NCBI GenBank assembly: GCA_963675785.1
Contig: OY776562.1
Location: 32,001-96,000, forward strand
Direction of reading: 5' to 3'
DNA length: 64,000 bases
DNA from: Anaerolineae bacterium
GTDB taxonomy: Bacteria > Chloroflexota > Anaerolineae > UBA1429
How positions within the stretch are numbered: the stretch's first letter is position 1; each line of letters starts with the position of its first letter. Below the pieces are notes generated by a model. It saw only the letters and a list, made by a program, of their open reading frames with translations. It did not search any database and had not been told where the DNA came from. Position numbers and translations under genes: made by a program. This document shows, piece by piece, positions 6,606 through 63,841 of this stretch.

Positions 6606-7844
6606 ATGGATTCTGCCCGGTCTTTGGATGACGAGACGTCTGTGCTTGCGCGGCGTGTGCTGATGATTGCCCCGACCTCTTTTTTTGCTGATTCGGGCTG
6701 TCATGTTCGCATTCTCGAAGAGACTCGGACGCTTCAACGCTTGGGGTGCCAGGTGGCCATATGCACGTATCACACTGGCCGGGATGTGGATGGTCTGGAT
6801 ATTCGGCGGACGGGTCCTCTGTTTTTTCATAGCAAGTATGAAGTTGGCACGGCGCGCCACAAAGTTGCTTTTGATGCACTTTTATTCTTTCGTGCCTGGG
6901 CCGCCTGCCGCTCTTTTCGCCCCCAGGTGATCCATGCACACTTGCACGAAGGCGCTCTGATTGGGTTGGTGCTCTCTCGTCTATTGCGAATACCGCTAAT
7001 ATTTGATTTTCAGGGCAGCCTGACCAGCGAGATGGTGGATAATCACTTTTTGTCTCGCGATGGCCTGGCTTACGGGCCTCTTCGGCGGCTAGAGCGCTAT
7101 ATCGACCAGCATGTGCCACAAATCATCACCAGTTCAACCCATGCGGCAGAGCTGGTTTGTGGCGAGTTTGGCTGTGATCCCGAGCGGGTGATGAGTATTG
7201 TTGATTGCGTTGACCTGGACACCTTTTATCCTCGCCAGGATGAAGAGGAGCGCCATAGCCAACTGCAATCCTTGGGTATTCCTGAAGGTCGGCACATTAT
7301 CGTGTATCTGGGCAAGCTGGCAGAGTATCAGGGAACAAGGTTGTTGATCGAGGCAGTGCAAGAGTTGTGCCGAAGACGTGATGATCTGCACTTTGTTATT
7401 GCGGGGTATCCCTCGGTGGATGTTTACAAGGCCCTCGCCTTTGAGTTGAGCATCGCCGATCACTGTACTTTTACCGGGCGGGTAGACTATGAGCACGCAG
7501 CCGACATTCTCAAATTGGGCGATATCGCCGTATCTCCCAAAGTGTCAAAAACCGAAGGCGCCGGAAAACTGCTCAATTACATGGCCATGGGATTGCCCAC
7601 CATCGCTTTTGATAACGGTGTAAGCCGCGAATACCTGGGCGATTTAGGGGTTTACGCGCCGACTGGCGATGTCGCAGCGCTGGCAGAGCAGATCAGTCTT
7701 TTGATTGATGATGAGCCCCGACGGTGCGAATTGGCAGTTGCACTACGCCAACGGGCAAGCATGTTTTCGTGGGATGAGGCAGGACACAGAATACTAGAGC
7801 GCTATGGGGCAGCGGCAGAAATGAAAAACGGGCCGCGCAAATAG
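6606..7844 (+). CDS. GT4 glycosyltransferase
   Basis: IHAHLHE, YLGKL-x-x-YQG, KLLNYMAMGLP. Confidence 0.88.
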   Translation: MDSARSLDDETSVLARRVLMIAPTSFFADSGCHVRILEETRTLQRLGCQVAICTYHTGRDVDGLDIRRTGPLFFHSKYEVGTARHKVAFDALLFFRAWAACRSFRPQVIHAHLHEGALIGLVLSRLLRIPLIFDFQGSLTSEMVDNHFLSRDGLAYGPLRRLERYIDQHVPQIITSSTHAAELVCGEFGCDPERVMSIVDCVDLDTFYPRQDEEERHSQLQSLGIPEGRHIIVYLGKLAEYQGTRLLIEAVQELCRRRDDLHFVIAGYPSVDVYKALAFELSIADHCTFTGRVDYEHAADILKLGDIAVSPKVSKTEGAGKLLNYMAMGLPTIAFDNGVSREYLGDLGVYAPTGDVAALAEQISLLIDDEPRRCELAVALRQRASMFSWDEAGHRILERYGAAAEMKNGPRK

Positions 7845-7856
7845 CACGGCCCGTTT
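7824..7856. terminator. Bidirectional terminator between GT4 and the tRNA cluster
   Basis: AAAAACGGGCCG...CGGCCCGTTT. Confidence 0.65.
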
Positions 7857-7863
7857 AATCCTG

Positions 7864-7937
7864 TGGAGGCGACGGTCGGACTCGAACCGACGATAAAGGT
7901 TTTGCAGACCTCTGCCTTGCCACTTGGCTACGTCGCC
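7864..7937 (-). tRNA. tRNA-Cys(GCA), CCA encoded
   Basis: GGCGACGTAGCCAAGTGG...CTGCAAA...GGTTCGAGTCC...GTCGCCTCCA. Confidence 0.96.
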
Positions 7938-7984
7938 TCAGAAAAACACGGCTCCCGGATATTATCAATTGGGAACCGTGCTCA

Positions 7985-8059
7985 TGGAGCGGAAGACGAG
8001 ATTCGAACTCGCGACCCTCTCCTTGGCAAGGAGATGCTCTACCACTGAGCCACTTCCGC
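7985..8059 (-). tRNA. tRNA-Gly(GCC), CCA encoded
   Basis: GCGGAAGTGGCTCAGTGG...TTGCCAA...GTTCGAATC...TTCCGCTCCA. Confidence 0.96.
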
Positions 8060-8064
8060 CCAGG

Positions 8065-8137
8065 TGCCGAAGCCCAGACTTGAACTGGGGACACCTTGAT
8101 TTTCAGTCAAGTGCTCTACCAACTGAGCTACCTCGGC
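8065..8137 (-). tRNA. tRNA-Phe(GAA), full CCA not encoded
   Basis: GCCGAGGTAGCTCAGTTGG...CTGAAAA...GTTCAAGTC...CTTCGGCA. Confidence 0.95.
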
Positions 8138-8258
8138 ACGAACCTTGGGTGCCTTTTATTCTATCGAAAACATAGAGCTTGTCAAACTCGCTGGCAGGCT
8201 TCCGGCAGCTTTGACAGTCTGATTTATGCAAGGGACAATACGTCCAGGGGGTAAATAC

Positions 8259-9179
8259 GTGAAGATATATGATAGTGTTGTCGAGACAATTGGGAATACG
8301 CCATTGGTTTATTTGTCTCACCTTCGCCAGGGCATTGGCGGGCGTGTTGCCGCCAAGCTCGAGTTTATGAACCCAATGTCGAGCGTCAAGGACCGAACGG
8401 CTGCAAATTTGATCGCGGATGCTGAGAAGCGTGGGCTCTTGTCTCCGGGGGCTTTGGTAGTTGAAGCGACTAGCGGTAATACGGGCATCGGTTTGGCTTG
8501 CGTCTGCGCTGCCAAGGGGTATCGTTTGGCCATCGTTATGCCCGATAATATGAGTCAAGAGCGCATCCAAATTCTAAAAGCGCTTGGAGCTCAGGTGGAA
8601 CTAACGCCGGCTTCCAGCGGCATCAAGGGCGCAGTAGCTCGCACTGATGAGATATTGAAGGCTAATCCGGGAAGTTTTGCCCCCCGGCAGTTTGAGAATC
8701 CTGCCAATCCTGATGCGCACCGCAAGACAACCGCACCAGAGATTCTGCGAGATACCGATGGTAGGGTAGATATCTTTATTGCTACATCTGGGACTGGAGG
8801 CACCTTCACCGGCGTTTCGGATGTTCTAAAGCGGCATAATCCCAATATTCGTTGCATCGTTGTCGAACCTGCCGAGTCTTCTGTTATTGCCGGGGGAGAA
8901 CCGCATCCACATGGCATCGCTGGCATTGGCCCAGGGTTTGTTCCCGACATCCTCTGCGTAGCCCTGGCCGACGAGATATTGCCAGTTAAGACAGAAGACG
9001 CGCGAGAGATGACGCGCCGCCTGGCTCGTGAGGAGGGTATCTTTGCCGGCATTTCCTCAGGGGCTGCTGCCTGGGCTGCATTGCATGTGGCTTCCAGGCC
9101 AGAGAATGTTGGCAAACTCATTGTGACGGTCTTGCCGGACGGCGGAGATCGCTATTTGAGCACAAATGTGTTTGCTTGA
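8259..9179 (+). CDS. cysK: Cysteine synthase A
   Basis: IGNTPLV, SSVKDR (PLP lysine), ATSGNTG, QFENPAN, GTGGT, GISSGA. Confidence 0.93.
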   Translation: MKIYDSVVETIGNTPLVYLSHLRQGIGGRVAAKLEFMNPMSSVKDRTAANLIADAEKRGLLSPGALVVEATSGNTGIGLACVCAAKGYRLAIVMPDNMSQERIQILKALGAQVELTPASSGIKGAVARTDEILKANPGSFAPRQFENPANPDAHRKTTAPEILRDTDGRVDIFIATSGTGGTFTGVSDVLKRHNPNIRCIVVEPAESSVIAGGEPHPHGIAGIGPGFVPDILCVALADEILPVKTEDAREMTRRLAREEGIFAGISSGAAAWAALHVASRPENVGKLIVTVLPDGGDRYLSTNVFA

Positions 9180-37646: not shown

Positions 37647-37761
37647 AAGCGGGAGGATTATAGCACAGATAGAATGCACCGACAAAGCAAGTAGGGGCGC
37701 TTTGACAGCACCCGGCCACCGCACTAGAGTTTGACTATTCAGGTATAAGGAGATGCACGCA

Positions 37762-38991
37762 ATGGTGCAGATTAGATTAGATGCTCTGGCCCACGGCGGT
37801 GATGCGATTGGCCGTCTAGATGGCAAAGCTGTTTTTGTACCCGGCGGCCTTCCGGGAGAGTTGGTCGAGGTCGAGATTATCGAGGAGCATAAGCGATTCT
37901 CCTCCGCGCATCTGCTCAATGTGTTGGAGGCCTCGACCGATCGAGTCGAGCCGCCTTGTCCTTATTACGGCGTCTGTGGTGGTTGCCAACTTCAGCATCT
38001 GAGCTACCCCGCACAGCTTGCGGCTAAGCACAAGTTGGTGGTTGAGCAATTTACGCGCATTGGCAAGATTGACGATGCTCTGGTGCATCCGGTGTTGGGG
38101 ATGGAGAATCCCTGGGCGTATCGCAATCATGTGCAGCTTTCTGTGACCGCTGAGGGTGCGCTGGGCTACCAAAAACGCCAGAGCAACGAGGTGGTTGCCG
38201 TGGAAGCTTGCCCACTGCTCCATCCTTTGCTGGCCGAACTGTGGGATGAGTTGGAAATTGACCCCACGGCTGTGGCGCGGGTGATTTTTCGCGCTGGCGT
38301 GAACACGGGTGAACAGATGCTGGTGTTTGAGGGGGTGGATGAAGATCTGCCCGAGTTCGAGATGGATGTGCCCCTTTCTGTGGTGTGGGTGGCGGCAAAT
38401 GGCGCAGAGCAGGTTCTGGCCGGTGAGAACTATTTCTGCGAAGAGATCGCTGGCTATCGCTTTCAGGTGTCGGCGCAGTCCTTCTTTCAGGTGAACACGG
38501 CTCAGGCCGAGGTATTGGTGGATGTGGTGCGGCGCTATGCCGCTCTTCAGCCGGGTGATGCGCTGCTGGATGCTTATTGTGGCGTGGGTTTGTTTAGCGT
38601 GTGTCTCAATGAAGCTTTGGGGGCGATTAGCGCCATCGAGATAGATGATTCCTCTTTTAACGACGCCCTGGTAAACCTGGGGCAGCTGCCAGAAGAGCTC
38701 GATATTGCTTTGATTCAGGGGGCGGTTGAGGATGTTGTGATTGAAGGAGAGGCACACTGCGATGTGGCCATCGTCGATCCGCCTCGGGCGGGTTGTGAGC
38801 TATCTGTACTGCAGGCACTGGCAATCTCTGGTGCTCGTCGTATTGTTATGGTTTCTTGCGATCCGGCGACGCTGGCCCGTGATGTGGCCCGCTTGGAGGA
38901 ATTGGGCTATCAGTTTATCGAAGCCCAGCCAATAGACATGTTTCCGCAGACGGCGCATGTGGAGACTGTGGCCTTGATGCTGATGAAATAG
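37762..38991 (+). CDS. rlmD: 23S rRNA m5U1939 methyltransferase
   Basis: TRAM domain, CPYYGVCGGCQLQH, SFFQVN, DAYCGVG, DPPRAG, SCDPATLARD, DMFPQTAHVE. Confidence 0.95.
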   Translation: MVQIRLDALAHGGDAIGRLDGKAVFVPGGLPGELVEVEIIEEHKRFSSAHLLNVLEASTDRVEPPCPYYGVCGGCQLQHLSYPAQLAAKHKLVVEQFTRIGKIDDALVHPVLGMENPWAYRNHVQLSVTAEGALGYQKRQSNEVVAVEACPLLHPLLAELWDELEIDPTAVARVIFRAGVNTGEQMLVFEGVDEDLPEFEMDVPLSVVWVAANGAEQVLAGENYFCEEIAGYRFQVSAQSFFQVNTAQAEVLVDVVRRYAALQPGDALLDAYCGVGLFSVCLNEALGAISAIEIDDSSFNDALVNLGQLPEELDIALIQGAVEDVVIEGEAHCDVAIVDPPRAGCELSVLQALAISGARRIVMVSCDPATLARDVARLEELGYQFIEAQPIDMFPQTAHVETVALMLMK

Positions 38992-39114
38992 AGAATCTCT
39001 TAATATTCCGTCTATAAATGGGATATATGATACTAGACTAGGTTGCAGAATAATTTCTGAACCTAGTCCGACAGGTGAGTTGCGTTAGGTGCTATGCAGA
39101 TAAGGGATGGGAGT

Positions 39115-40191
39115 ATGTCGCAGAGTGAGATAGATCTGCTAAGGAACAAGCACACAGAGCTGATTGATATTGTCACAAAGAGAGTTCAGACTGATTTCCC
39201 AGAAGATATCGATCTGATTGGTATTTGCGGTTCTTTTCTTACAGACGATTTCTACGAAAAGTCAGATCTAGACTTGCTGGTGGTGCCGAACAATGAGCGG
39301 GGTTGGGGATTTACCTCTTGTTTTGTTCTGGATGGTATTGGTTATGATCTTTATGGCACATCTTGGAAAAAACTTGAAAAGATGGCCTGCTATGACGACA
39401 TGTTCGTATCACATGTTATTGATGTGGATATCGTTTACTGCAGAGATTCTGAATGTATGGAACGTTTTCAACAGTTACGGAGCCAAGCACTCGGCATCAT
39501 CAACGGTCCGATGACGCCTCAAATTCTGCAAAAAGCCAAGACGCATCTGGAGAGTGCCATATCAGCCTATGGCCGCTTGATGTTGGAGGATAAACTTGGC
39601 GCCGTTCGCCAGTATTCTGGTGATGCCCTTTATCATTTGACTAACGCAGTGTGTTGTATGAACCACAGTTACTTTAGAAGGGGAGTCAAACGTCAGCTGG
39701 AAGAAATGTTGGCGATGGAACAGGTTCCTGACCATTTCAAAGAATACTTTGATGGTGTTATGCATGCCAGAACTGTGGCAGAGATCAAGGAAGCAACAAA
39801 GAGATTGCTTCAAAGCGTCAACTCACTGTACGACACGATTTCTAGTGAGTTGCTCGATATAGCGGTCCCCGCAAAAGATGATTTGCGTGGGACATATGAA
39901 GAGATCTGGTCGAATTGGAAGAACAAGATTCATTACGCGGCAAAGCATGGTGACGTACTGCTCGCTTTTGCGACAGGGGTCAGCTGCCAGGATTTCTATA
40001 ACGAGATGCAAAAGGAGCACGGAACTGCATTCATCGATCTAATGGAGCATTTTCAAGCGGATGCACTCGATACTTTTGCCAATGCTTTTGAAGAGGCGAT
40101 GGAACTCTACCGACAGGAGTATGAAAAGTTGGGGATGAGGGTGCTAGAGTATAGATCCGTCGATGCGTTTCGGAAGGATTATCTTGGCTGA
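39115..40191 (+). CDS. Pol-beta superfamily nucleotidyltransferase (KNTase-like)
   Basis: GSFLTDDFYEKSDLD plus helical C-terminal region; alternative start at 39094. Confidence 0.75.
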   Translation: MSQSEIDLLRNKHTELIDIVTKRVQTDFPEDIDLIGICGSFLTDDFYEKSDLDLLVVPNNERGWGFTSCFVLDGIGYDLYGTSWKKLEKMACYDDMFVSHVIDVDIVYCRDSECMERFQQLRSQALGIINGPMTPQILQKAKTHLESAISAYGRLMLEDKLGAVRQYSGDALYHLTNAVCCMNHSYFRRGVKRQLEEMLAMEQVPDHFKEYFDGVMHARTVAEIKEATKRLLQSVNSLYDTISSELLDIAVPAKDDLRGTYEEIWSNWKNKIHYAAKHGDVLLAFATGVSCQDFYNEMQKEHGTAFIDLMEHFQADALDTFANAFEEAMELYRQEYEKLGMRVLEYRSVDAFRKDYLG

Positions 40192-40260
40192 GGAACACAT
40201 GTGCAGGGCTGGGATAGGTTGACGCAATACTTTTCTACTAGCCACATCAATCAGGGTTTT

Positions 40261-40425
40261 GGTGCCGAAGTATTGCTAGGGTCTTTTGCGATGTTGACGC
40301 TTGTTCGTAGGGTGGCGCGTTTAGGCATGGGCCATCGTTTTATCGAGATTCAGTCAATAGACATGGTCCCGCAAACGGCGCACGTAGAGAAAGCAGTATT
40401 GATGTCACGGAACCTGTCTTCTTGA
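40261..40425 (+). repeat. Degenerate copy of the rlmD 3' end
   Basis: TLVRRVARLGMGHRFIEIQSIDMVPQTAHVEKAVLM vs RlmD [37 protein letters not shown]. Confidence 0.9.
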
Positions 40426-40525
40426 CACTCGAAATACAAGTTCTCCGACTTTTGGATAAGAAGCAGTAGTTTTCCTGATATATCAATAATTAAGTAAACA
40501 TATATGACGGCAACAGGATAATAAA

Positions 40526-40912
40526 GTGAAAAACTATACACAGGTCTATGTTATGAACAGCTTCGAAGCTGCTGACACATATTGCAGAGCTTTCGGAGGA
40601 GAGGTAACATTTGAGATAAAAAACGAGGCCGGGGACGCATTTGCGCATTGCGAGTTGTCTGTGAGCGGCGAACCTTTTCTTGCTTTGGCCGAAGCGGCAG
40701 AACCATATGACGTAAGTCTGATTCATAGAGAAAGATGGCAGACAATGACTTTCAATGCTTTTGAATTGGGGAGTGAAGCGGCTGTCAGGAACGCATTAAG
40801 CGTTTTGAGCGAAGGCGGTGTTGTTATTGAGCCAATCCATGAATTACCCTGGAGCAAATGCTGCGCGACGGTTATAGATAAATATGGGGTATGCTGGTGG
40901 ATAGCAATATAA
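40526..40912 (+). CDS. VOC/PhnB-family protein
   Basis: EA-x-x-x-YC-x-AFG, LSEGG-x-V...PWS...DKYGV-x-W. Confidence 0.85.
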   Translation: MKNYTQVYVMNSFEAADTYCRAFGGEVTFEIKNEAGDAFAHCELSVSGEPFLALAEAAEPYDVSLIHRERWQTMTFNAFELGSEAAVRNALSVLSEGGVVIEPIHELPWSKCCATVIDKYGVCWWIAI

Positions 40913-41000
40913 CGACAGAAACGGTTTCGGCTTGAATAAGTCGGTTAGACAAATAACAGTTTTTCGGGGACATTAGCTTATTTTTCAGGAGTATAGGATT

Positions 41001-41417
41001 GTGGTTGAAATAAGGTATGTTAAGAAACGGATAAGGATTTCTGGTTCAGTCTCGATAAGCATCTGGATGAAAAAGAATATGAGAACAAGGTGAATACAAA
41101 AAGGGGTATGACTGTCGGAGGATAATCAGCCGATAGGATTACTTCGGTATAATCTTTTCTGGGATAACACTCCGTTCTGTACTTTGTTATATATAGACGG
41201 GAATTACCGGAGAAAAGGCTATGGTCGAATGCTTATGGGATTCTGGGGAAAAGATATGAGATTGCGGGGGTATGGAATGATATTGGCTTCTACACAGGTC
41301 GATGAAGGGGCGCAGCATTTCTACAGAAAACTGGGTTATAAAGATTGCGGCGGAGTCATAGTGGATATTCCCGGCTATGAACAACCTATGGAATTATTCT
41401 TGAGCAAGGCGTTGTGA
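41001..41417 (+). pseudogene. GNAT acetyltransferase, two frameshifts
   Basis: VVEIRYV / DKDFWFSLDKHL / LLRYNLFWDNTPFCTLLYID...RRKGYG...AQHFYRKLGY lie in different frames. Confidence 0.75.
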
Positions 41418-41444
41418 CTGGTTTGAAATTGCAGAGTTGTTTGA

Positions 41445-41668
41445 ATAACAGTAAAAAAGGCAAGAAAACTTAGAAACGGGCTTTTAATTGCAGGCTTTGT
41501 AATTATGTTATTGGCTTATGTTTATGAACCCCTGATAATTGTTGGTGCCTTGGTGACATTCTCCTGTCTTATTCCTCATTTTCTGTATAACAAATGCCCT
41601 CATTGCGGAAAGCAGCTTGGCAGGACGAAGGAGATTTCTGTCAGCATTGCGGTGGACGCATCAACTAA
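41445..41668 (+). pseudogene. Small membrane protein with a zinc ribbon, frameshifted
   Basis: TM segments, CPHCGKQLGR, then in another frame EGDFCQHCGGRIN*; start appears to be ATA. Confidence 0.6.
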
Positions 41669-41686
41669 AAGTTCCAGTTTGCCGGC

Positions 41687-41876
41687 GTGGATATGTTTTC
41701 TTATACCTGTTTTTCCGTTTACATATTATCTTATACGAGTAGTTTCGGTGAATATGTTAGCGTATACGTGTGATATTTCTGATATGTTAGGATATACCTA
41801 TGACATCCGACCTGTGGTTTCAAGCCATGTGGAGATAGTAGTTCTGATGACGAGAAGGGGCTCTGAGAGCCAATAG
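41687..41876 (+). repeat. Split rlmD-end copy containing four ~30-bp repeats
   Basis: GTGGATATGTTTTCTTATACC (VDMFSYT) ... CATGTGGAGATAGTAGTTCTGATG (HVEIVVLM); units start at 41691, 41721, 41752 and 41782. Confidence 0.75.
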
Positions 41877-41979
41877 TAGATTAATTTGAGAATCTTGATT
41901 TGATAACCCTTGTTCCCCCCAATAGGATGTTCTTATGTAATATTGACATAATGCATTGCAATATTGAAAGGAACCCTAT

Positions 41980-42351: not shown

Positions 42352-42547
42352 GGGCGCGCTGCAAGAAACGTTTTTTCCTGGATAACCAAGTATGCGCCCA
42401 AATGGATTGACCAAGGCGGATTATCTTTTCCCCGTATTTGTTGTGAAACGCCAGCCATGGTTACATGGTTTTATCGCTGTAAACAAGTGACCTTGTGTCG
42501 CGAAGAAAAGGCGGCTAGTTTTTTATCCGTTAGAGGAGAGTTTCACG

Positions 42548-42958
42548 ATGGAAAAGCAACCTGCGAATGACGAAAGATCTCCGTCTCAGCTAATCGATGA
42601 GCGAATTGAGGAATTAGGTGATTGGCGGGGGCAGATGCTCTCCAAGATACGAACCCTGGTCAAAGAAGTCGATCCGGAGGTAGTCGAGGAGTGGAAATGG
42701 CGAGGAACCCCTGTGTGGTCTGACGATGGAATGATATGTACTGGAGAGACTTATAAGAATGCTGTCAAAATGACTTTCGCCAAGGGAGCATCATTAGAGG
42801 ATCCCACGCATCTTTTCAACGCCAGTTTGGACGGGAATGTCAGAAGGGCCATTGATTTTCACGAGGGGGACACACTGGACGAGGAGGCGCTTAAGGAACT
42901 AATCTGTGCCGCCATAGCCCTAAACAAGTCCAATCGTAAGGCTTCTCGTAAAGGGTGA
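42548..42958 (+). CDS. DUF1801/YdhG-like protein
   Basis: EEWKWRGTPVW, CTGETYK, FAKGASL-x-DP-x-x-LFN, RRAID. Confidence 0.88.
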   Translation: MEKQPANDERSPSQLIDERIEELGDWRGQMLSKIRTLVKEVDPEVVEEWKWRGTPVWSDDGMICTGETYKNAVKMTFAKGASLEDPTHLFNASLDGNVRRAIDFHEGDTLDEEALKELICAAIALNKSNRKASRKG

Positions 42959-43072
42959 GTTTTTCCGTCAATAGGGGTTCGTGCCTGCTTAGGTTGATAC
43001 TGAGAGCGTGCCGATAAACTTCTGCGCATATGAATTTCTAGAATTCAGAGGCTTTTTTAGAAAGTTACTCTA

Positions 43073-45609: not shown

Positions 45610-48600
45610 ATGACCAAGAATGCATTTTGGAAAGATAGTCTACGGCAAGTGCGGGCTACACTAAATCGTTTCTTGGCTATTCTTGTCATAACGGCCTTGG
45701 GAGTTGCTTTTTTTGCCGGGCTTAGAGCATCTGGCCCCGACATGAGAGCTACGGCCTCAGCGTATTACGACGAATTGAATTTCATGGACGTCAGGTTGCT
45801 CTCCACCATCGGTTTCGATGAGAATGATGTGGATGCCGTAAGAAACACGCAAGGTGTTCTCGGTGTGATGCCAGCCTATTCCTATGATGCGATTGTCGAG
45901 CTATCGAGTGAGAACTTGACCATTCGGTTGGACTCTTTGAGTGAAGAACCTAATACAGAAAACGATATCAACGCTCCCAATGTAGTAGAAGGGCGTATGC
46001 CGGAAAGTAGCGGCGAATGTCTTGTCGATCCCCACTTTATAACGCTCTCTGGCTATCAAATCGGGGATACCGTGAACTTGGTCTCAGGTACGGCTACGCT
46101 CATTTCGGATACTTTGAAAACAGACGCATTCCAGATTGTGGGAATTGCAGAGAGCCCTTTGTATATTTCCAATGAACGGGGATCTAGTGATATTGGCAGT
46201 GGCAAGATGGACGCCTATGTTATGGTGCCTGCAGGTGATTTCACTTTGCCAGTCTATACAGAGATATATGTGACAATCGAGAATGAGGCCGGGCGTTCTC
46301 GATTTGAGGATACGTTTACGGATTTACTAGAGCCAATCGAAACCGCTTTGAAAGATGTCGGAGAGCTTCGAGCAAGTGTGCGTTATGCTGAAATCCAAGA
46401 CGAAGCAACCCAAGAACTGGATGACGCTAAAGCGGAACTCAACGATGGATGGGCGGAATACAATCAAAGTAAAGCGGATTTCGATACACAGATTGCTGAT
46501 GCACAGCAACAACTTGATGATGGATATGTCCAATACAACCAAGGTCTGGCAGAATATGCGGCGGGCCTCAGTGCACTTGAGGCAGCAAAAACAGATACGG
46601 AAGCGCAGTTTTCCCAAGCTGAGGATCAATTAGCACAGGGACAGACAGAATATGAAAGCGGGCTTGGCGCCTATAACGATGGCAAGGTCGTATATGATGC
46701 ACTGGTTGATGCATTAGCAGCTGGTAACACGCCTGAAGCTATTGCGACTATTAGTGGATTGATCAGCGAGATGCAGGATGATGGCGCCGATCTTGCGATG
46801 GTGCTCTCTGCTTATGTGGACAATCCTGATGATGCTACGAGTATAGCGGCAGCACAGGGAGCAGTTGCAGAGTTTGGCAATGTGCTCGAGCAAAGCAAGC
46901 AACAGCTCGATGAAGTAGCGGGCACGCTTGATGAAAAAAGCGTCGAATTGGAACAAGCACGCCTCGATGCTCAAAGCCAATTGGATGAATCCCAGGATCA
47001 GCTCGATGAATCATCCAGTCAGCTCAACGATCTAAAAGAAACCCTTGACAAAAATCGCGAGGAACTCGAACAGTCGCGAATTGAGGGGCAAGATGGGTTG
47101 GCTGAAGCCAAAGAGAGACTTGAGGAAGCAGCGCAGGAGATAGCGGATGGCGAAGAGCAGTTAGCTGAGCTTGAAATGCCAGAATGGTACATCCTCGATC
47201 ATGATACCAACATTGGCTTTGCCAGCTACAAAGAAGACGCAGAGCGTATCGATACGCTCAGTGTTGTTTTCCCCCTACTTTTCTTCCTGGTGGCGATACT
47301 CGTATCCATGACCTCGATGACACGCCTTGTGGAGAGCGATCGTCCTCATATCGGCACCCTCAAAGCATTGGGCTATAGCAATGGCAAAATCGCCTCGCGC
47401 TATCTGCTTTATGCCCTGGCAGCCTCATCTTTGGGTAGCGGGATTGGTTTGATTGTAGGTTTTAACCTTTTCCCCCGAGTGATTTTCAACGCTTATAGTG
47501 TGCTCTACAACTTGCCGCCGATCATGGCTGATTTTAACCTCAAATTTGCGGTTATTTCGACAGTAGCTGCAGTTTCATGCGCAACTCTGCCAGCCTGGTT
47601 TATCTGTGTGCGGGCATTAAGAGGTACCTCTGCTGAGATGATGCGCCCCGCCGCACCGAATAGTGGCAAACGTATTTTGCTTGAGCGCATCACGCCGCTT
47701 TGGAAGATGCTGAACTTTTCTCAAAAAGTGGCGATGCGAAATCTCTTTCGCTACAAAAAGCGTTTTTTCATGACGATATTCGGTGTTGCTGGCTGCACGG
47801 CACTCATGTTTGCTGGATTTGGGCTGCGCGATGGTATCACGACGATCGAACCCAAGCAGTACGAAAACATTCAGCGCTATGATTTACAGATCGACTTTGA
47901 AGGGGATGCCCCAGCGGAAGAGAAGCAATCTCTGGATGAAGAAATAACAAGCAGTGCAGGCATTTTGTCAGAAACCGAATTATTCCAAGAGTCAGTGGAT
48001 TTTTTGAGTGATGGACAGCTCAAATCAACAACGCTGATTGTGCCCGAAGTGATATCTGAATTTTCAGATTTTATCCATCTTCAAAATCGCGAGACACAAG
48101 AAACACTTGTTCTCTCGGATGATTCGGTCATTATTACAGAAAGACTGTCCGTATTGTTTGATTTGCAGGTGGGAGATACTTTCGTCCTTCGGGATGGCGA
48201 TGGACAAGAAGCGACAGTCCAAGTGGGCGGCATCGCGGAATACTATCTGTATCACTATATTTACATGTCCCCGTCACTGTATCGCTCATCTTTTGGAAAA
48301 GAGCCTGTCGCGAATCAGATGTTGTGTCTCCTTCGTGACCCTGCGGACGACAATAGCGCGCTTGCTACGAGTTTGCTGGAACAATCTTGCGTAACCTCTG
48401 TGACGCTCACTGCGAATGTAAGAGCTTCATTCGAAAACATTGTCAATTCCTTGCACTATGTCGTTTGGGTTCTGATCATATCTGCTGCGATGCTTGTGTT
48501 CGTCGTGCTCTTTAGTTTGACCACGATTAACTTGGAGGAACGTGGTCGAGAGTTGGCGACGATCAAGGTGCTTGGTTTTTATGACTGGGAGCTTGCTGCT

Positions 48601-54655: not shown

Positions 54656-54720
54656 TTGACAGGGTATTCGTTTTCTGACAAAATATGAACGAACGTTCAT
54701 TAACTAACTAACTAACTAAC
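54656..54720 (+). promoter_or_regulatory. Promoter, palindromic operator and (TAAC)5 repeat
   Basis: TTGACA-17 nt-CAAAAT; ATGAACGAACGTTCAT; TAAC x5. Confidence 0.65.
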
Positions 54721-60473: not shown

Positions 60474-60507
60474 GGAGCATATTCTGATACAATATGCTCC
60501 TCTTTTT
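60474..60507 (+). terminator. Intrinsic terminator immediately upstream of the ANT(6)-like RBS
   Basis: GGAGCATATT/AATATGCTCC plus TCTTTTT. Confidence 0.75.
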
Positions 60508-60529
60508 GCTCCCTTCGGAGGATACTCGG

Positions 60530-61402
60530 ATGTTCACATATGACGAGCTTTTGACGAGATTTGCCTCGTGGACCGAGAGGACTCATGACGTGATAGCTGT
60601 TTTTATCATAGGCTCTCGTGCCAGAGATAAATCCCCGGCCGATGCCTTTTCAGATCTCGATCTCGTGTTAGTGGTCACGGATCCAGAACATTTCTTGTCG
60701 TCGGACGAGTGGATCGAAAATCTAAGCCCCTATTGGATGCAGTTCACTGAACGTACCTTTGGTGGTGGTCAAGAGCGCCGAGTGCTGTTTGAGGGGGCTC
60801 TTGACGTTGACTTTTGCCTATTTTCAGAGGCTCAATTTCGGCGTCTTGCAACTGAAAGAGAGGCGCACAAGATATTCTCCAGAGGATATCGGGTCATGCT
60901 CGATCAGGCTGGATTAGCTGGTCTGCTTCCCAATTGTAGTTTTGAGCATTCACAATCTCTTCCTCCACTAGAGGGCGAATTCTTGAACCGCGTTAATGAT
61001 TTTTGGTTCCATACTGTGTGGGTTGCGAAAAAGCTGCAGCGAGGCGAGTTGTGGACCGCTAAATCATGTTTGGATTGCTATATGAAGCAACATTTACTAT
61101 GGATCACCGAGTGTCACGCTCACATCATCAATGGCTGGGGTTATGACACTTGGCACGACGGCCGTTTTTTAGACGTATGGGCATTGCGAGAAGTAAAGGG
61201 GGCAATCCCCTGTACTTTTGCACGCTATGATCTCGTTGATATGGAACGTGCTCTGCGAGCCACGATGGATTTGTTCCATTCGCTGGCTGTAAAAGTCGCT
61301 GAGGATATGCAGTTCGAATATCCAGCAGAAAAAGAACAGCAGGTTATCAAGTGGGTCGATCAAGCATTAGCGAATCTATCCCCTTCTGATGCTGCATTAT
61401 GA
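60530..61402 (+). CDS. Aminoglycoside 6-adenylyltransferase family protein
   Basis: GSRAR...AD-x-FSDLD, NDFWF...KKL-x-RGELW, WHDGRFL. Confidence 0.82.
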   Translation: MFTYDELLTRFASWTERTHDVIAVFIIGSRARDKSPADAFSDLDLVLVVTDPEHFLSSDEWIENLSPYWMQFTERTFGGGQERRVLFEGALDVDFCLFSEAQFRRLATEREAHKIFSRGYRVMLDQAGLAGLLPNCSFEHSQSLPPLEGEFLNRVNDFWFHTVWVAKKLQRGELWTAKSCLDCYMKQHLLWITECHAHIINGWGYDTWHDGRFLDVWALREVKGAIPCTFARYDLVDMERALRATMDLFHSLAVKVAEDMQFEYPAEKEQQVIKWVDQALANLSPSDAAL

Positions 61403-62335
61403 ATGGGAACTGCTATGGAACTAAATGAGCTTGTTCGCACTATTCCTGGTTCGAATGGTTGGCAACTAGTGCGAGAGGTCAATAAGGGCTGGTCATCCGA
61501 TCGCAAATACTATGTCGAAACAGGTGAGGGGCAGCGACTTTTGTTGCGAGTTTCGGATATCGCCCAGTACGATGAAAAGAAGCGCGAGTTCGAAGCGATG
61601 AAACAGCTCGACACTCTCGACATAAATATACCTCGCCCCATAGATTTTGGCCTTTGCGAGGGAGGCGCGGCAGTGTACCTTTTGCTTACCTGGGTCAATG
61701 GGGCAGAAGCGGAGAAGGTATTACCTACGTTGAACAGCGCTGAACAATATAGATTAGGACTGGAAGCGGGCAGGGTGCTGGCCAAGATGCATCAGGTTCC
61801 TGCTCCCGAGGGACAAACTCCTTGGTCAGAACGTTTCAACGCCAAGATCGATCGAAATATCCGTAAACATTTGGCTTGTCGGATTCAAGCAGAGGGTGCT
61901 GACCGGATCATTGCCTACATTGAGACCAGCAGGCATTTGCTGGATGATAGGCCGCAGTGTTTTCAGCATGGCGATTACCATTGCGGTAACATGCTAATCA
62001 ACAATCAGCGTCACATTGGCATTATCGATTTCAACCGACTCGATTACGGCGATCCTTGGGAAGAATTCAATCGCATTACTTGGTGTGCTGCAGTCAGTCC
62101 CTTGTTTGCTTCGGGGCGTATCAACGGCTATTTCGAGGATGCTGTGCCTGACGAGTTTTTCAGGCTTTTGGCGCTGTATATCGGCAGCAATCAGCTCGCT
62201 TCTGTACCATGGGCCATTCCCTTTGGTCCCGCCGAGGTACAGACAATGCTTCAACAAACAAAAGCTGTGTTAGCATGGTATGATGATTTCCGTTCCTATA
62301 TCCCCAGTTGGTACATCTCTCAATTCTCGGACTGA
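61403..62335 (+). CDS. Aminoglycoside phosphotransferase family protein
   Basis: KGWSSDRKY, HGDYHCGN, IIDF, GDPWEEF. Confidence 0.9.
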   Translation: MGTAMELNELVRTIPGSNGWQLVREVNKGWSSDRKYYVETGEGQRLLLRVSDIAQYDEKKREFEAMKQLDTLDINIPRPIDFGLCEGGAAVYLLLTWVNGAEAEKVLPTLNSAEQYRLGLEAGRVLAKMHQVPAPEGQTPWSERFNAKIDRNIRKHLACRIQAEGADRIIAYIETSRHLLDDRPQCFQHGDYHCGNMLINNQRHIGIIDFNRLDYGDPWEEFNRITWCAAVSPLFASGRINGYFEDAVPDEFFRLLALYIGSNQLASVPWAIPFGPAEVQTMLQQTKAVLAWYDDFRSYIPSWYISQFSD

Positions 62336-62827: not shown

Positions 62828-63007
62828 TTATTACAGACCTATCTCTCAGTCAAGATATGCAAACATGAACTCTTTGTCATTCTGCTTTTAACCACCATAT
62901 AGCTTGATGTGCTTTGAGCAGATAAGGAACCCCAGATATCCAAATATGCTTGTTGATGGTTGTGCTATGTGACTGGCTAGATGATCCAAGTAGTAGAGGG
63001 AAGGCTC

Positions 63008-63841
63008 ATGCTTTTATCGCAGATAACAGAAACCCTTTCAGCGATTCCGGGTGTCAGAGCTATAGCATTGGGAGGTTCCCAAAGCCGCGGAGAAGCTGAC
63101 GAAAGCTCAGACTTTGATATTGGTTTGTATTATGACGCAGACACGCTGGATGTCATTGCGTTAAGCCAATGCCTAAAGGAAATCGATGACAGGCATGAGG
63201 ACGGTCTTTTGAATCCTCCTGGGCAGTGGGGCTCTTGGATCAATGGCGGAGCGTGGTTGAGTGTCGAGGGTGTGTCTATCGATATCCTTCTTCGAGATAT
63301 TTCAAGGGTCAAAGCGGTCGTTGGGGATTGCGTCGCGGGCAGAATCACAATTGATTACCAAAATGGGCACCCTTTTGGTTTTGTCAACACGATCTATGCT
63401 GCTGAGACACACTATTGTCAGCCTTTGTGGCAAGATCGCTCTGCACTTCTCTCGATGCTAAAAACCTTGCTGTATTCAAAAGGTGAGTATCCCCCCTTGA
63501 TGCGAGAAGCTACGATCAAGAAATTTCTGTGGGGTGCCGAGTTTTCATTGCAGTGTGGGCGTAAGGCAACGTTTCGGGGTGACCTCAATTACTCGGCTGG
63601 TTCCGTTTTTAGGGCTGTTTGTTGTTGGGTTCAAGTACTATATGCCCTGAATAATTGTTATTTGATGAACGAAAAGGGGGCTTTGAGGCAGGTTCATCTC
63701 CTTGAGCAAAGCCCGGCTGATATGGAACCCAAAGTGAAGGAGATATATTCTCTGCTGGCGAATGGGAACGCCCAAGGTGCTTACCAAATTCTAGAGTGTT
63801 TACATAGTAAAGTCGAGGAGCTTGTCGCTGGATTTTTTTGA
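63008..63841 (+). CDS. Nucleotidyltransferase domain protein
   Basis: LGGSQSRG...SDFDIGLYY, WINGGAWL, NEKGAL. Confidence 0.85.
   Translation: MLLSQITETLSAIPGVRAIALGGSQSRGEADESSDFDIGLYYDADTLDVIALSQCLKEIDDRHEDGLLNPPGQWGSWINGGAWLSVEGVSIDILLRDISRVKAVVGDCVAGRITIDYQNGHPFGFVNTIYAAETHYCQPLWQDRSALLSMLKTLLYSKGEYPPLMREATIKKFLWGAEFSLQCGRKATFRGDLNYSAGSVFRAVCCWVQVLYALNNCYLMNEKGALRQVHLLEQSPADMEPKVKEIYSLLANGNAQGAYQILECLHSKVEELVAGFF

Follow-up and report, generated by a model that had tools for sequence, protein, structure and literature searches.

A phased array of target half-site mimics at the probable orphaned end of an rlmD-integrating serine-recombinase element

The 164 bases at positions 41687 to 41850 of the DNA analysed here, a stretch of 64,000 nucleotides from contig OY776562.1 of an Anaerolineae bacterium (the window), are probably the orphaned distal end of an element that integrates into rlmD by means of large serine recombinases, and the four repeats that they contain are likely docking sites for recombinase on one face of the DNA. 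The repeats resemble the rlmD half of the recombination site, lack a crossover, recur in a family of related sites, keep a phase of ten bases across that family and are linked to a trio of recombinase genes. The gene rumA/rlmD is a known hotspot for serine-recombinase ICEs, IMEs and prophages of Bacillota (PMC4701971, PMC5704250, PMC7168690, PMC11578063); in streptococci it harbours resistance prophages and ICEs (PMC7168690). The hotspot is thus familiar, and the new part is the extended, phased attachment end of the elements that use it. A literature search returned no account of phased target-mimic arrays; supplementary att-site tables (e.g. those of PMC4701971 and PMC10083194) may show them. 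Large serine recombinases owe their value as genome-engineering tools to the view that two short sites suffice for them (PMC3783163). Phased accessory sites would give them a second mode of control, could explain how two-recombinase elements handle a target half-site that is fixed by protein coding, and could explain why such enzymes might look weak on minimal sites. The rules that govern the ends at the rlmD hotspot also bear on the growth of such islands.

The host genome is a single contig of 3.2 Mb, 94.8% complete. Its rlmD (rumA) gene, coding for a 23S rRNA uracil methyltransferase (Pfam TRAM and tRNA_U5-meth_tr), occupies window positions 37753 to 38991 on the forward strand, as do all features described below, and ends in IDMFPQTAHVETVALMLMK; its last codons are the integration target. 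Behind it, small genes of stress and modification types fill about 28 kb up to rpsO-pnp at genome position 99025. Among 17 stretches behind rlmD in relatives, pnp lies within 1 kb in three (L037, L038, L049), about 10 kb away in two, in inverted orientation in one, and is not seen in 11, several of them short. The region thus forms an island at rlmD.

Three rlmD-type tails are present in this island (at 38956, 40381 and 41826), all within 3 kb of rlmD, and the remaining island genes show no repeated boundary. Site 1 (38932-38983) is the native rlmD half-site, or B arm, with the putative crossover CA at 38956-38957 followed by an element-type tail (tail profile 28.9; B-arm profile 28.5 at offset -4). 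It is followed by a nucleotidyltransferase-like cargo gene at 39094-40191, with weak matches to Pfam Polbeta and NTP_transf_2 below the cut-off. In site 2 (40215-40425), the 130-170 bases of rlmD that lead up to the crossover recur in degenerate form (CA at 40381), and a tail follows. The copy matches the rlmD 3' end at 75% over 77 nt and in 93 of 121 positions over the last 127 nt, the local alignment beginning near 40215, and by the tail scores the tail of site 2 carries a mirrored element motif that is close to perfect. A second copy of the rlmD 3' end is also found 0.7-1.4 kb downstream of the gene in relatives from the host's family (184/198 identity in L119 of genome G015; 30 nt in L036 of G012), which suggests a further way in for cargo, one in which host DNA as far as the crossover is duplicated.

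Between sites 2 and 3 lies a small cargo (40526-41668) composed of a glyoxalase/VOC-like gene (Pfam Glyoxalase, E 0.002, below the cut-off), a GNAT gene at 41112-41414 (E 5e-12) broken by stops, and a small membrane or zinc-ribbon-like gene, labelled by eye from paired CxxC motifs, which three-frame translation shows to be broken by frameshifts. A 123-residue open reading frame that crosses the repeats (41505-41876) has no Pfam match and was rejected as a gene, being read-through of the frameshifted one. After the stop of the last cargo gene and before the outermost unit, positions 41666-41684 carry a TTCCAGTTTGYCG-like motif, seen also in L009, L017, L019 and L059; in a formal count it stood upstream of only 2 of 33 family sites and was not taken as part of the array. 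Site 3 (41826-41876) comprises the putative crossover CA and the rlmD-like replacement tail HVEIVVLMTRRGSESQ, recognised by its mirror symmetry with the adjoining element arm and by its HVE tail. Site 2, 1.4 kb of cargo and site 3 together have the layout of a CIME, in which the integration genes are lost and attL/attR-like ends are kept. From 41980 to 64000 the cargo island continues with two DUF1801 genes, GNAT, NUDIX, HD and HAD genes, adenylyl- and phosphotransferase-like genes, an ABC transporter and a glycoside hydrolase (all by Pfam).

The four repeats themselves are beyond reasonable doubt. All strings quoted in the preliminary description of this DNA are in place: the left string at 41687, the units at 41691, 41721, 41752 and 41782, and CATGTGGAGATAGTAG at 41826, with unit spacings of exactly 30, 31 and 30 bp. 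Their 16-base cores follow a common pattern, AYATRTT-N4-TATAC, in which TATAC is invariant and the changes are concentrated in the central four columns. The preliminary description had named shuffled sequence as the standard against which the periodicity should be judged, and a motif-free chain statistic was used for this, taking the best four 16-mers at a spacing of 29-32 (maximum 96). The array scores 75, whereas 1000 dinucleotide shuffles score 43.8 +/- 2.9 with a maximum of 56, so that none reaches 75. The highest score among 1500 random tiles of the genome was 66, and one of 418 AT-rich tiles, from a grid that includes a tile holding the locus itself, scored 75. No match to positions 41660-41900 was returned by BLAST-type searches of 40 related genomes, PLSDB plasmids and INPHARED phages.

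With the crossover as origin, unit 1 (41687-41706) ends 119 bases before it, unit 2 (41717-41736) at -89, unit 3 (41748-41767) at -58 and unit 4 (41778-41797) at -28, adjoining the element arm. Unit 1 is a mimic of the rlmD half-site (B-arm profile 15.0; family-unit profile 21.6, among the top two in the genome), and unit 3 scores 9.2 on the B-arm profile and agrees in position and in its spacer end with locus L054. These two are the only window units that pass the B-arm threshold. Units 2 and 4 fall below zero (-1.6 and -5.5); unit 2 is recognised by the chain statistic and has a family-profile score of 3.9, and unit 4 by its positional match to the -28 unit of L017, L024, L031, L054 and L060. 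The window units agree with each other in 11-14 of 16 positions and with the host rlmD arm in 9-11 of 16. A dinucleotide CC, conserved at 96-98% in other family units as measured, circularly, on units picked with the same profile, is lost from three of the four. This loss and the low rlmD-arm scores fit decay as well as changed specificity. The TATAC end is found in 4/4 window units and elsewhere in 4 of 10 innermost units, a place at which two scans favoured ATAC, and in 0 of 88 others. The array thus likely arose by tandem duplication of an innermost unit in this lineage. Its closest relative is L054, with 77% identity over 62 nt and the same end of the spacer between units 3 and 4; it is the only close relative found.

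The repeats had been described as inserted inside an rlmD att-like site, between its left and right halves. Nothing is inserted there. The 26 bases that precede CATGTGGAG form a conserved element arm, TGACATC-N18, whose counterpart GATGTCA in the tail mirrors it across a central CA, and this symmetry marks the CA as the probable crossover. The true left arm is thus the element's own half-site, or P arm, at 41800-41825, with the outer motif TGACATC at -25 to -19, and all four units lie outside it. Unit 1, previously equated with the left half-site, does resemble the rlmD half-site, but the real left arm (TGACATC-N18|CA) is at 41800-41825. A profile of the element arm built from 34 other sites scores 51.0 at 41826, and no other position of the 3.2-Mb genome reaches 12. 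The end is thus homologous to that of intact elements, found in genomes G173 and G541; it lies 2.9 kb behind rlmD and terminates in a replacement of the last rlmD codons. The outer arm motif (TGACATCAAT) is common to element arms and absent from the rlmD coding arm: it fits the mirrored tails at shift 0 and is poor on 25 rlmD arms at any shift, with a best mean score of -7.3 at shift 3 and of -26.9 at the canonical shift of 5. The outer motif of attP that canonical serine integrases show in attB, 5 bp further inward, is therefore missing here.

Recurrence at other rlmD-linked loci, proposed earlier as a test, was found in GTDB, metagenome and viral loci. In scans that did not require repeated units, family sites were recognised at 6 of 20 GTDB loci and 11 of 12 metagenome loci. 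The arm and tail pattern alone was found in 19 of 401 genomes of the class to which G041, a Lachnospiraceae genome, belongs, with 2 control hits; in the host's phylum the arm pattern gave 5 of 401 genomes and 3 control hits, and by eye only those of the host (G000) and G541 are true sites. Viral loci picked on arm and tail only comprised 32 true sites and 18 chance matches out of 50. The units were then sought with a profile built only from 25 native rlmD arms, that of the host included. With the window left out, 15 of 23 site groups have units upstream of their element arm, against a mean of 0.05 units in shuffles and 0 on the reverse strand; in the viral set, 24 of 32 true sites have them and none of the 18 chance matches does. 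Repeats are not universal, as 18 of 64 family sites and 8 of 32 viral sites have no upstream unit at threshold, and their number per site varies from 0 to 3. Among viral contigs, a three-unit pattern gave six AT-rich or simple-repeat loci, dropped as unrelated, an arm-end pattern gave three judged to be chance, and a stricter pattern gave none.

The family is not uniform. A three-unit block is kept intact, with its spacers, in several hosts (L017, L024, L031, L055, L057, L061). A unit-less CCACCAAGGG subfamily (L053, L056, L058, L059, L062, L077, L087, L136) shares the same element arm and has no rlmD-mimic units; instead, the seven loci whose upstream DNA was inspected, all but L136, carry a conserved TCCACCAAGG motif just upstream of the arm. 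In a second arm type (L009, L010, L011, L016, L019, L020) the innermost unit lies 38 bases from the crossover, and in L009, L019 and L020 it is preceded by a long inverted repeat, TTTTAACGATA...TATCGTTAAAA.

The positions of the units follow the turn of the helix. Unit ends lie near -28, -38, -48, -58, -68, -78, -88, -98, -110 and -117 from the crossover, and unit spacings cluster at 21, 29-30, 40, 50-53, 61-63 and 79-83. The best period is 10.1 bases (R 0.76, 32 units; reached by 0 of 5000 null sets), and R is still 0.74 (0/5000) when the class at -25 to -28, favoured by two scans, is left out. A further 11 viral groups, none with a match among the earlier sites, give R 0.70 at the period set beforehand (15 units; 2/20000). 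All these null counts overstate significance because of relatedness between site groups, some of which have positions in common (L074/L109; the L083 and L092 groups). One observed unit (-153) is outside the null range of this test. The counts leave out L093 and L096, which are chance sites, and four sites with less than 190 nt upstream; L095 (G541) failed the tail filter of the script and its units were judged by eye only. The four window units, at -28, -58, -89 and -119, are all within about 1 base of phase. At 17 of 63 sites, mirror-image units face the crossover from the tail side, mostly at 108-121 bases; none was found at the three sites of the window.

A link to serine recombinases, suspected in the preliminary description, was borne out: recombinase matches occur in the available flank of 13 of the 32 true viral sites and of none of the 18 chance ones. 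The element arm recurs in prophages and islands that integrate at rlmD and carry genes for two large serine recombinases plus a short third gene. By Pfam, two proteins with Resolvase, Recombinase and zinc-ribbon domains flank a 140-residue protein with the Recombinase domain only. Whole elements, from rlmD to the unit-bearing arm, are seen in the complete genomes G173 and G541, where a prophage with the trio is closed at its distal end, 56-59 kb behind rlmD, by the same arm. Viral locus L170 likewise combines the trio with the repeats. In four loci (L019, L024, L062, L110), only one or two small genes stand between rlmD and this end and no recombinase is present, a layout known from decayed cis-mobilizable elements (PMC5704250). 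The window copy is likewise an orphan. Searches of the 94.8% complete genome G000 with PF07508, PF00239 and a large-serine-recombinase family protein found no serine recombinase, so that this copy appears to encode none of its own, as an autonomous ICE, IME or prophage would, and both genes that immediately precede the repeats are disrupted. Without a helper element as a source of enzymes, the copy is probably inactive.

We consider that the repeats are likely accessory recombinase-binding sites, a reading drawn from sequence comparison. One protein of the trio may be specific for the odd rlmD arm, as the outer motif missing there would imply, and mimics of that arm beside the attachment site of the element could pre-load or position this protein for target capture or excision. 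Successive integrations at rlmD would have stacked cassettes in the host, with site 3 as the junction of a small rlmD-proximal cassette and an older element end whose recombinase genes were lost. More tentatively, large serine recombinases of this kind might assemble a multi-subunit intasome; phased half-site mimics on both sides of the element's attachment site would then load the target-specific protein, or the short one with only the Recombinase domain, and integration would depend on them to be efficient and directional. Should this possibility be true, it would present a large-serine-recombinase system with accessory DNA sites, and the array of four TATAC units would be the sign of a lineage whose specificity has shifted. 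As for the earlier idea that the repeats define the cis element of an undescribed capture system, the phased array does appear undescribed, but the system is the known rlmD/rumA accretion hotspot. The preliminary description was right in placing the repeats in rlmD-linked serine-recombinase biology with several sub-sites, and has to be corrected as to insertion into the target, a res site and local scars.

An unlikely alternative is that the repeats bind recombinase protein for regulation, i.e. that they titrate a target-specific subunit, brake excision or repress a nearby promoter. A tunable sink would suit the variable number of units, and the trio does include a short protein with only the Recombinase domain; simple titration, however, needs neither phasing to the crossover nor mirrored placement on both sides. 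We also think it rather unlikely that the units are functionless relics, pieces of host rlmD that element ends once picked up and have kept since, multiplied by slippage. The copies of the rlmD 3' end at downstream sites (at least 127 nt in the window, 198 nt in G015, 30 nt in G012) provide a route of origin, and the window copy is diverged and without enzyme. Neutral copying, on the other hand, would not place units at different multiples of ten bases in different lineages, nor does it agree with changes concentrated in the central four columns of the window units while TATAC stays invariant.

It is very unlikely that the repeats act as an integron-like cis element that captures single genes at this place. 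The enzyme-less loci with one or two small genes would agree with such capture, as would a contig in run X5, one of four examined out of 15 listed, that joins 40407 to 41825, skipping cargo, repeats and arm, so that sequence like that of site 2 appears to meet site 3 with the 1.4-kb cargo left out. This single contig (depth 38, shorter side 72 bases, 85% likeness setting) fits a related strain with the downstream DNA directly on the rlmD-type arm and may belong to another organism; it bears on whether the recombinase of a related element could excise or mobilise the cassette, as in a CIME. Against single-gene capture, the only three tails of the 28-kb island are clustered near rlmD and the other genes lack a repeated boundary, the same ends bound whole prophages, and decay to enzyme-less cassettes with tandem accretion has already been described (PMC5704250). 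Nor does the island resemble an integron or CALIN, with a single-strand-folding site repeated after each cassette and a tyrosine integrase beside the array: it has three tails, the array region folds as RNA or single-stranded DNA no better than shuffles (z-scores +1.27 and +1.00) and has no Rfam match, and the two PF00589 genes of the host genome are at 1.19 Mb and 3.05 Mb, outside the island.

That the units are stacked scars of repeated integration and excision at this locus, as proposed earlier, is highly improbable. Each unit does look like the target half-site, and rlmD is known as a place of recurrent insertion (PMC11578063, PMC7168690), but a crossover follows none of 98 distinct family units and none of the four in the window; the units are therefore half-site mimics, not complete sites or scars. 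The window units are also closer to each other than to the host arm, and arrays travel intact between hosts.

The least credible reading is the res-like multi-site array of the preliminary description, that is, the res site of a small serine resolvase, since the units are single half-sites in direct repeat, the enzymes linked to them elsewhere are large serine recombinases with Recombinase and zinc-ribbon domains, no small resolvase gene is adjacent and no Resolvase-domain gene (PF00239) was found in the host genome. Dyads about TATA had been noted in units 3 and 4. Unit 3 does contain an 8-base palindrome, but its longer dyad is at chance (7/14); in unit 4, a TGT..TATA..ACA-like dyad extends into the bases that follow and holds in 10 of 14 positions (14-base arms, p about 0.016, one of four units tested); it arises from the unit abutting the arm motif GACAT. 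Units 1-3 score 8, 9 and 7 against a null mean of 7.2, so that a dyad above chance, as expected of res subsites with paired half-sites about a central spacer, is seen in only one unit of four. TATAC, moreover, ends only 4 of the 98 family units, and TATA is not the family consensus.

Among known recombination systems, lambda attP has a similar layout, its arm-type sites being additional repeats that bind recombinase to either side of the core. Lambda differs in its tyrosine recombinase with a separate arm-binding domain, in its host bending proteins and in arm sites that do not copy the target. Within the serine recombinases, res sites of Tn3, gamma-delta and Sin combine a crossover site with accessory sites for the same enzyme family in constrained geometry, and site II of Sin has half-sites in direct repeat (bioRxiv 10.1101/2021.12.07.471667). 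Resolvase subsites are bound by dimers on paired half-sites and act in resolution, whereas single target mimics and large integrases are involved here. Phage serine integrases (LI/A118, phiC31, Bxb1) share with the present elements half-sites of about 25 bases with an outer motif, placed where the zinc-ribbon domain binds (16-24 in LI integrase, 16-25 before the crossover here; PMC3783163). The canonical enzymes are said to require no auxiliary DNA, with sites of 40-50 bp and an attB motif shifted 5 bp inward (PMC3783163); the rlmD arm, in contrast, does not fit this shift, and half-site mimics extend the element end to about 120 bases.

Staphylococcal cassette chromosomes, integrated at rlmH by CcrAB or CcrC, are similar in having large serine recombinases, often two, and the 3' end of an rRNA methyltransferase gene as target (PMC13739063). 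SCCmec also has three like half-sites and an odd fourth that overlaps the methyltransferase frame, as well as composite elements and ccr-less cassettes. The gene, the motifs and the crossover differ (GA there, putatively CA here), and phased copies of the odd half-site are not described in what that source covers of the system (PMC13739063). The elements closest to ours are those of rumA/rlmD, with the same 3' target, last-codon replacement, nested and tandem hotspot and decay to enzyme-less cassettes (CIMEs). Streptococcal rumA ICEs have a single integrase with the att site inside its gene (PMC4701971), whereas two full-length recombinases with a short gene, and an arm away from them, are found here. 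The accounts of rumA/rlmD elements cited above give direct repeats of 2-21 bp at the ends and mention no target-mimic array; the window copy, for its part, has no recombinase.

Several further observations concern the cargo of the island. The second DUF1801 gene (42534-43036) has 81% DNA identity to the first gene behind rlmD in L042 of genome G001 (1486-1990), and this cargo is therefore common to rlmD islands of the host's family. A homolog of the nucleotidyltransferase gene at 62981-63841, 63% identical, lies in the island between rlmD and pnp in another relative (L039 of G008, 7601-8425). Genes with streptomycin adenylyltransferase-family and APH phosphotransferase-family domains, identified by domain matches only, occupy 60494-62335. 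Inside the island, two 19-base inverted repeats (54666-54684 and 47962-47980), 95% complementary, lie 6.7 kb apart.
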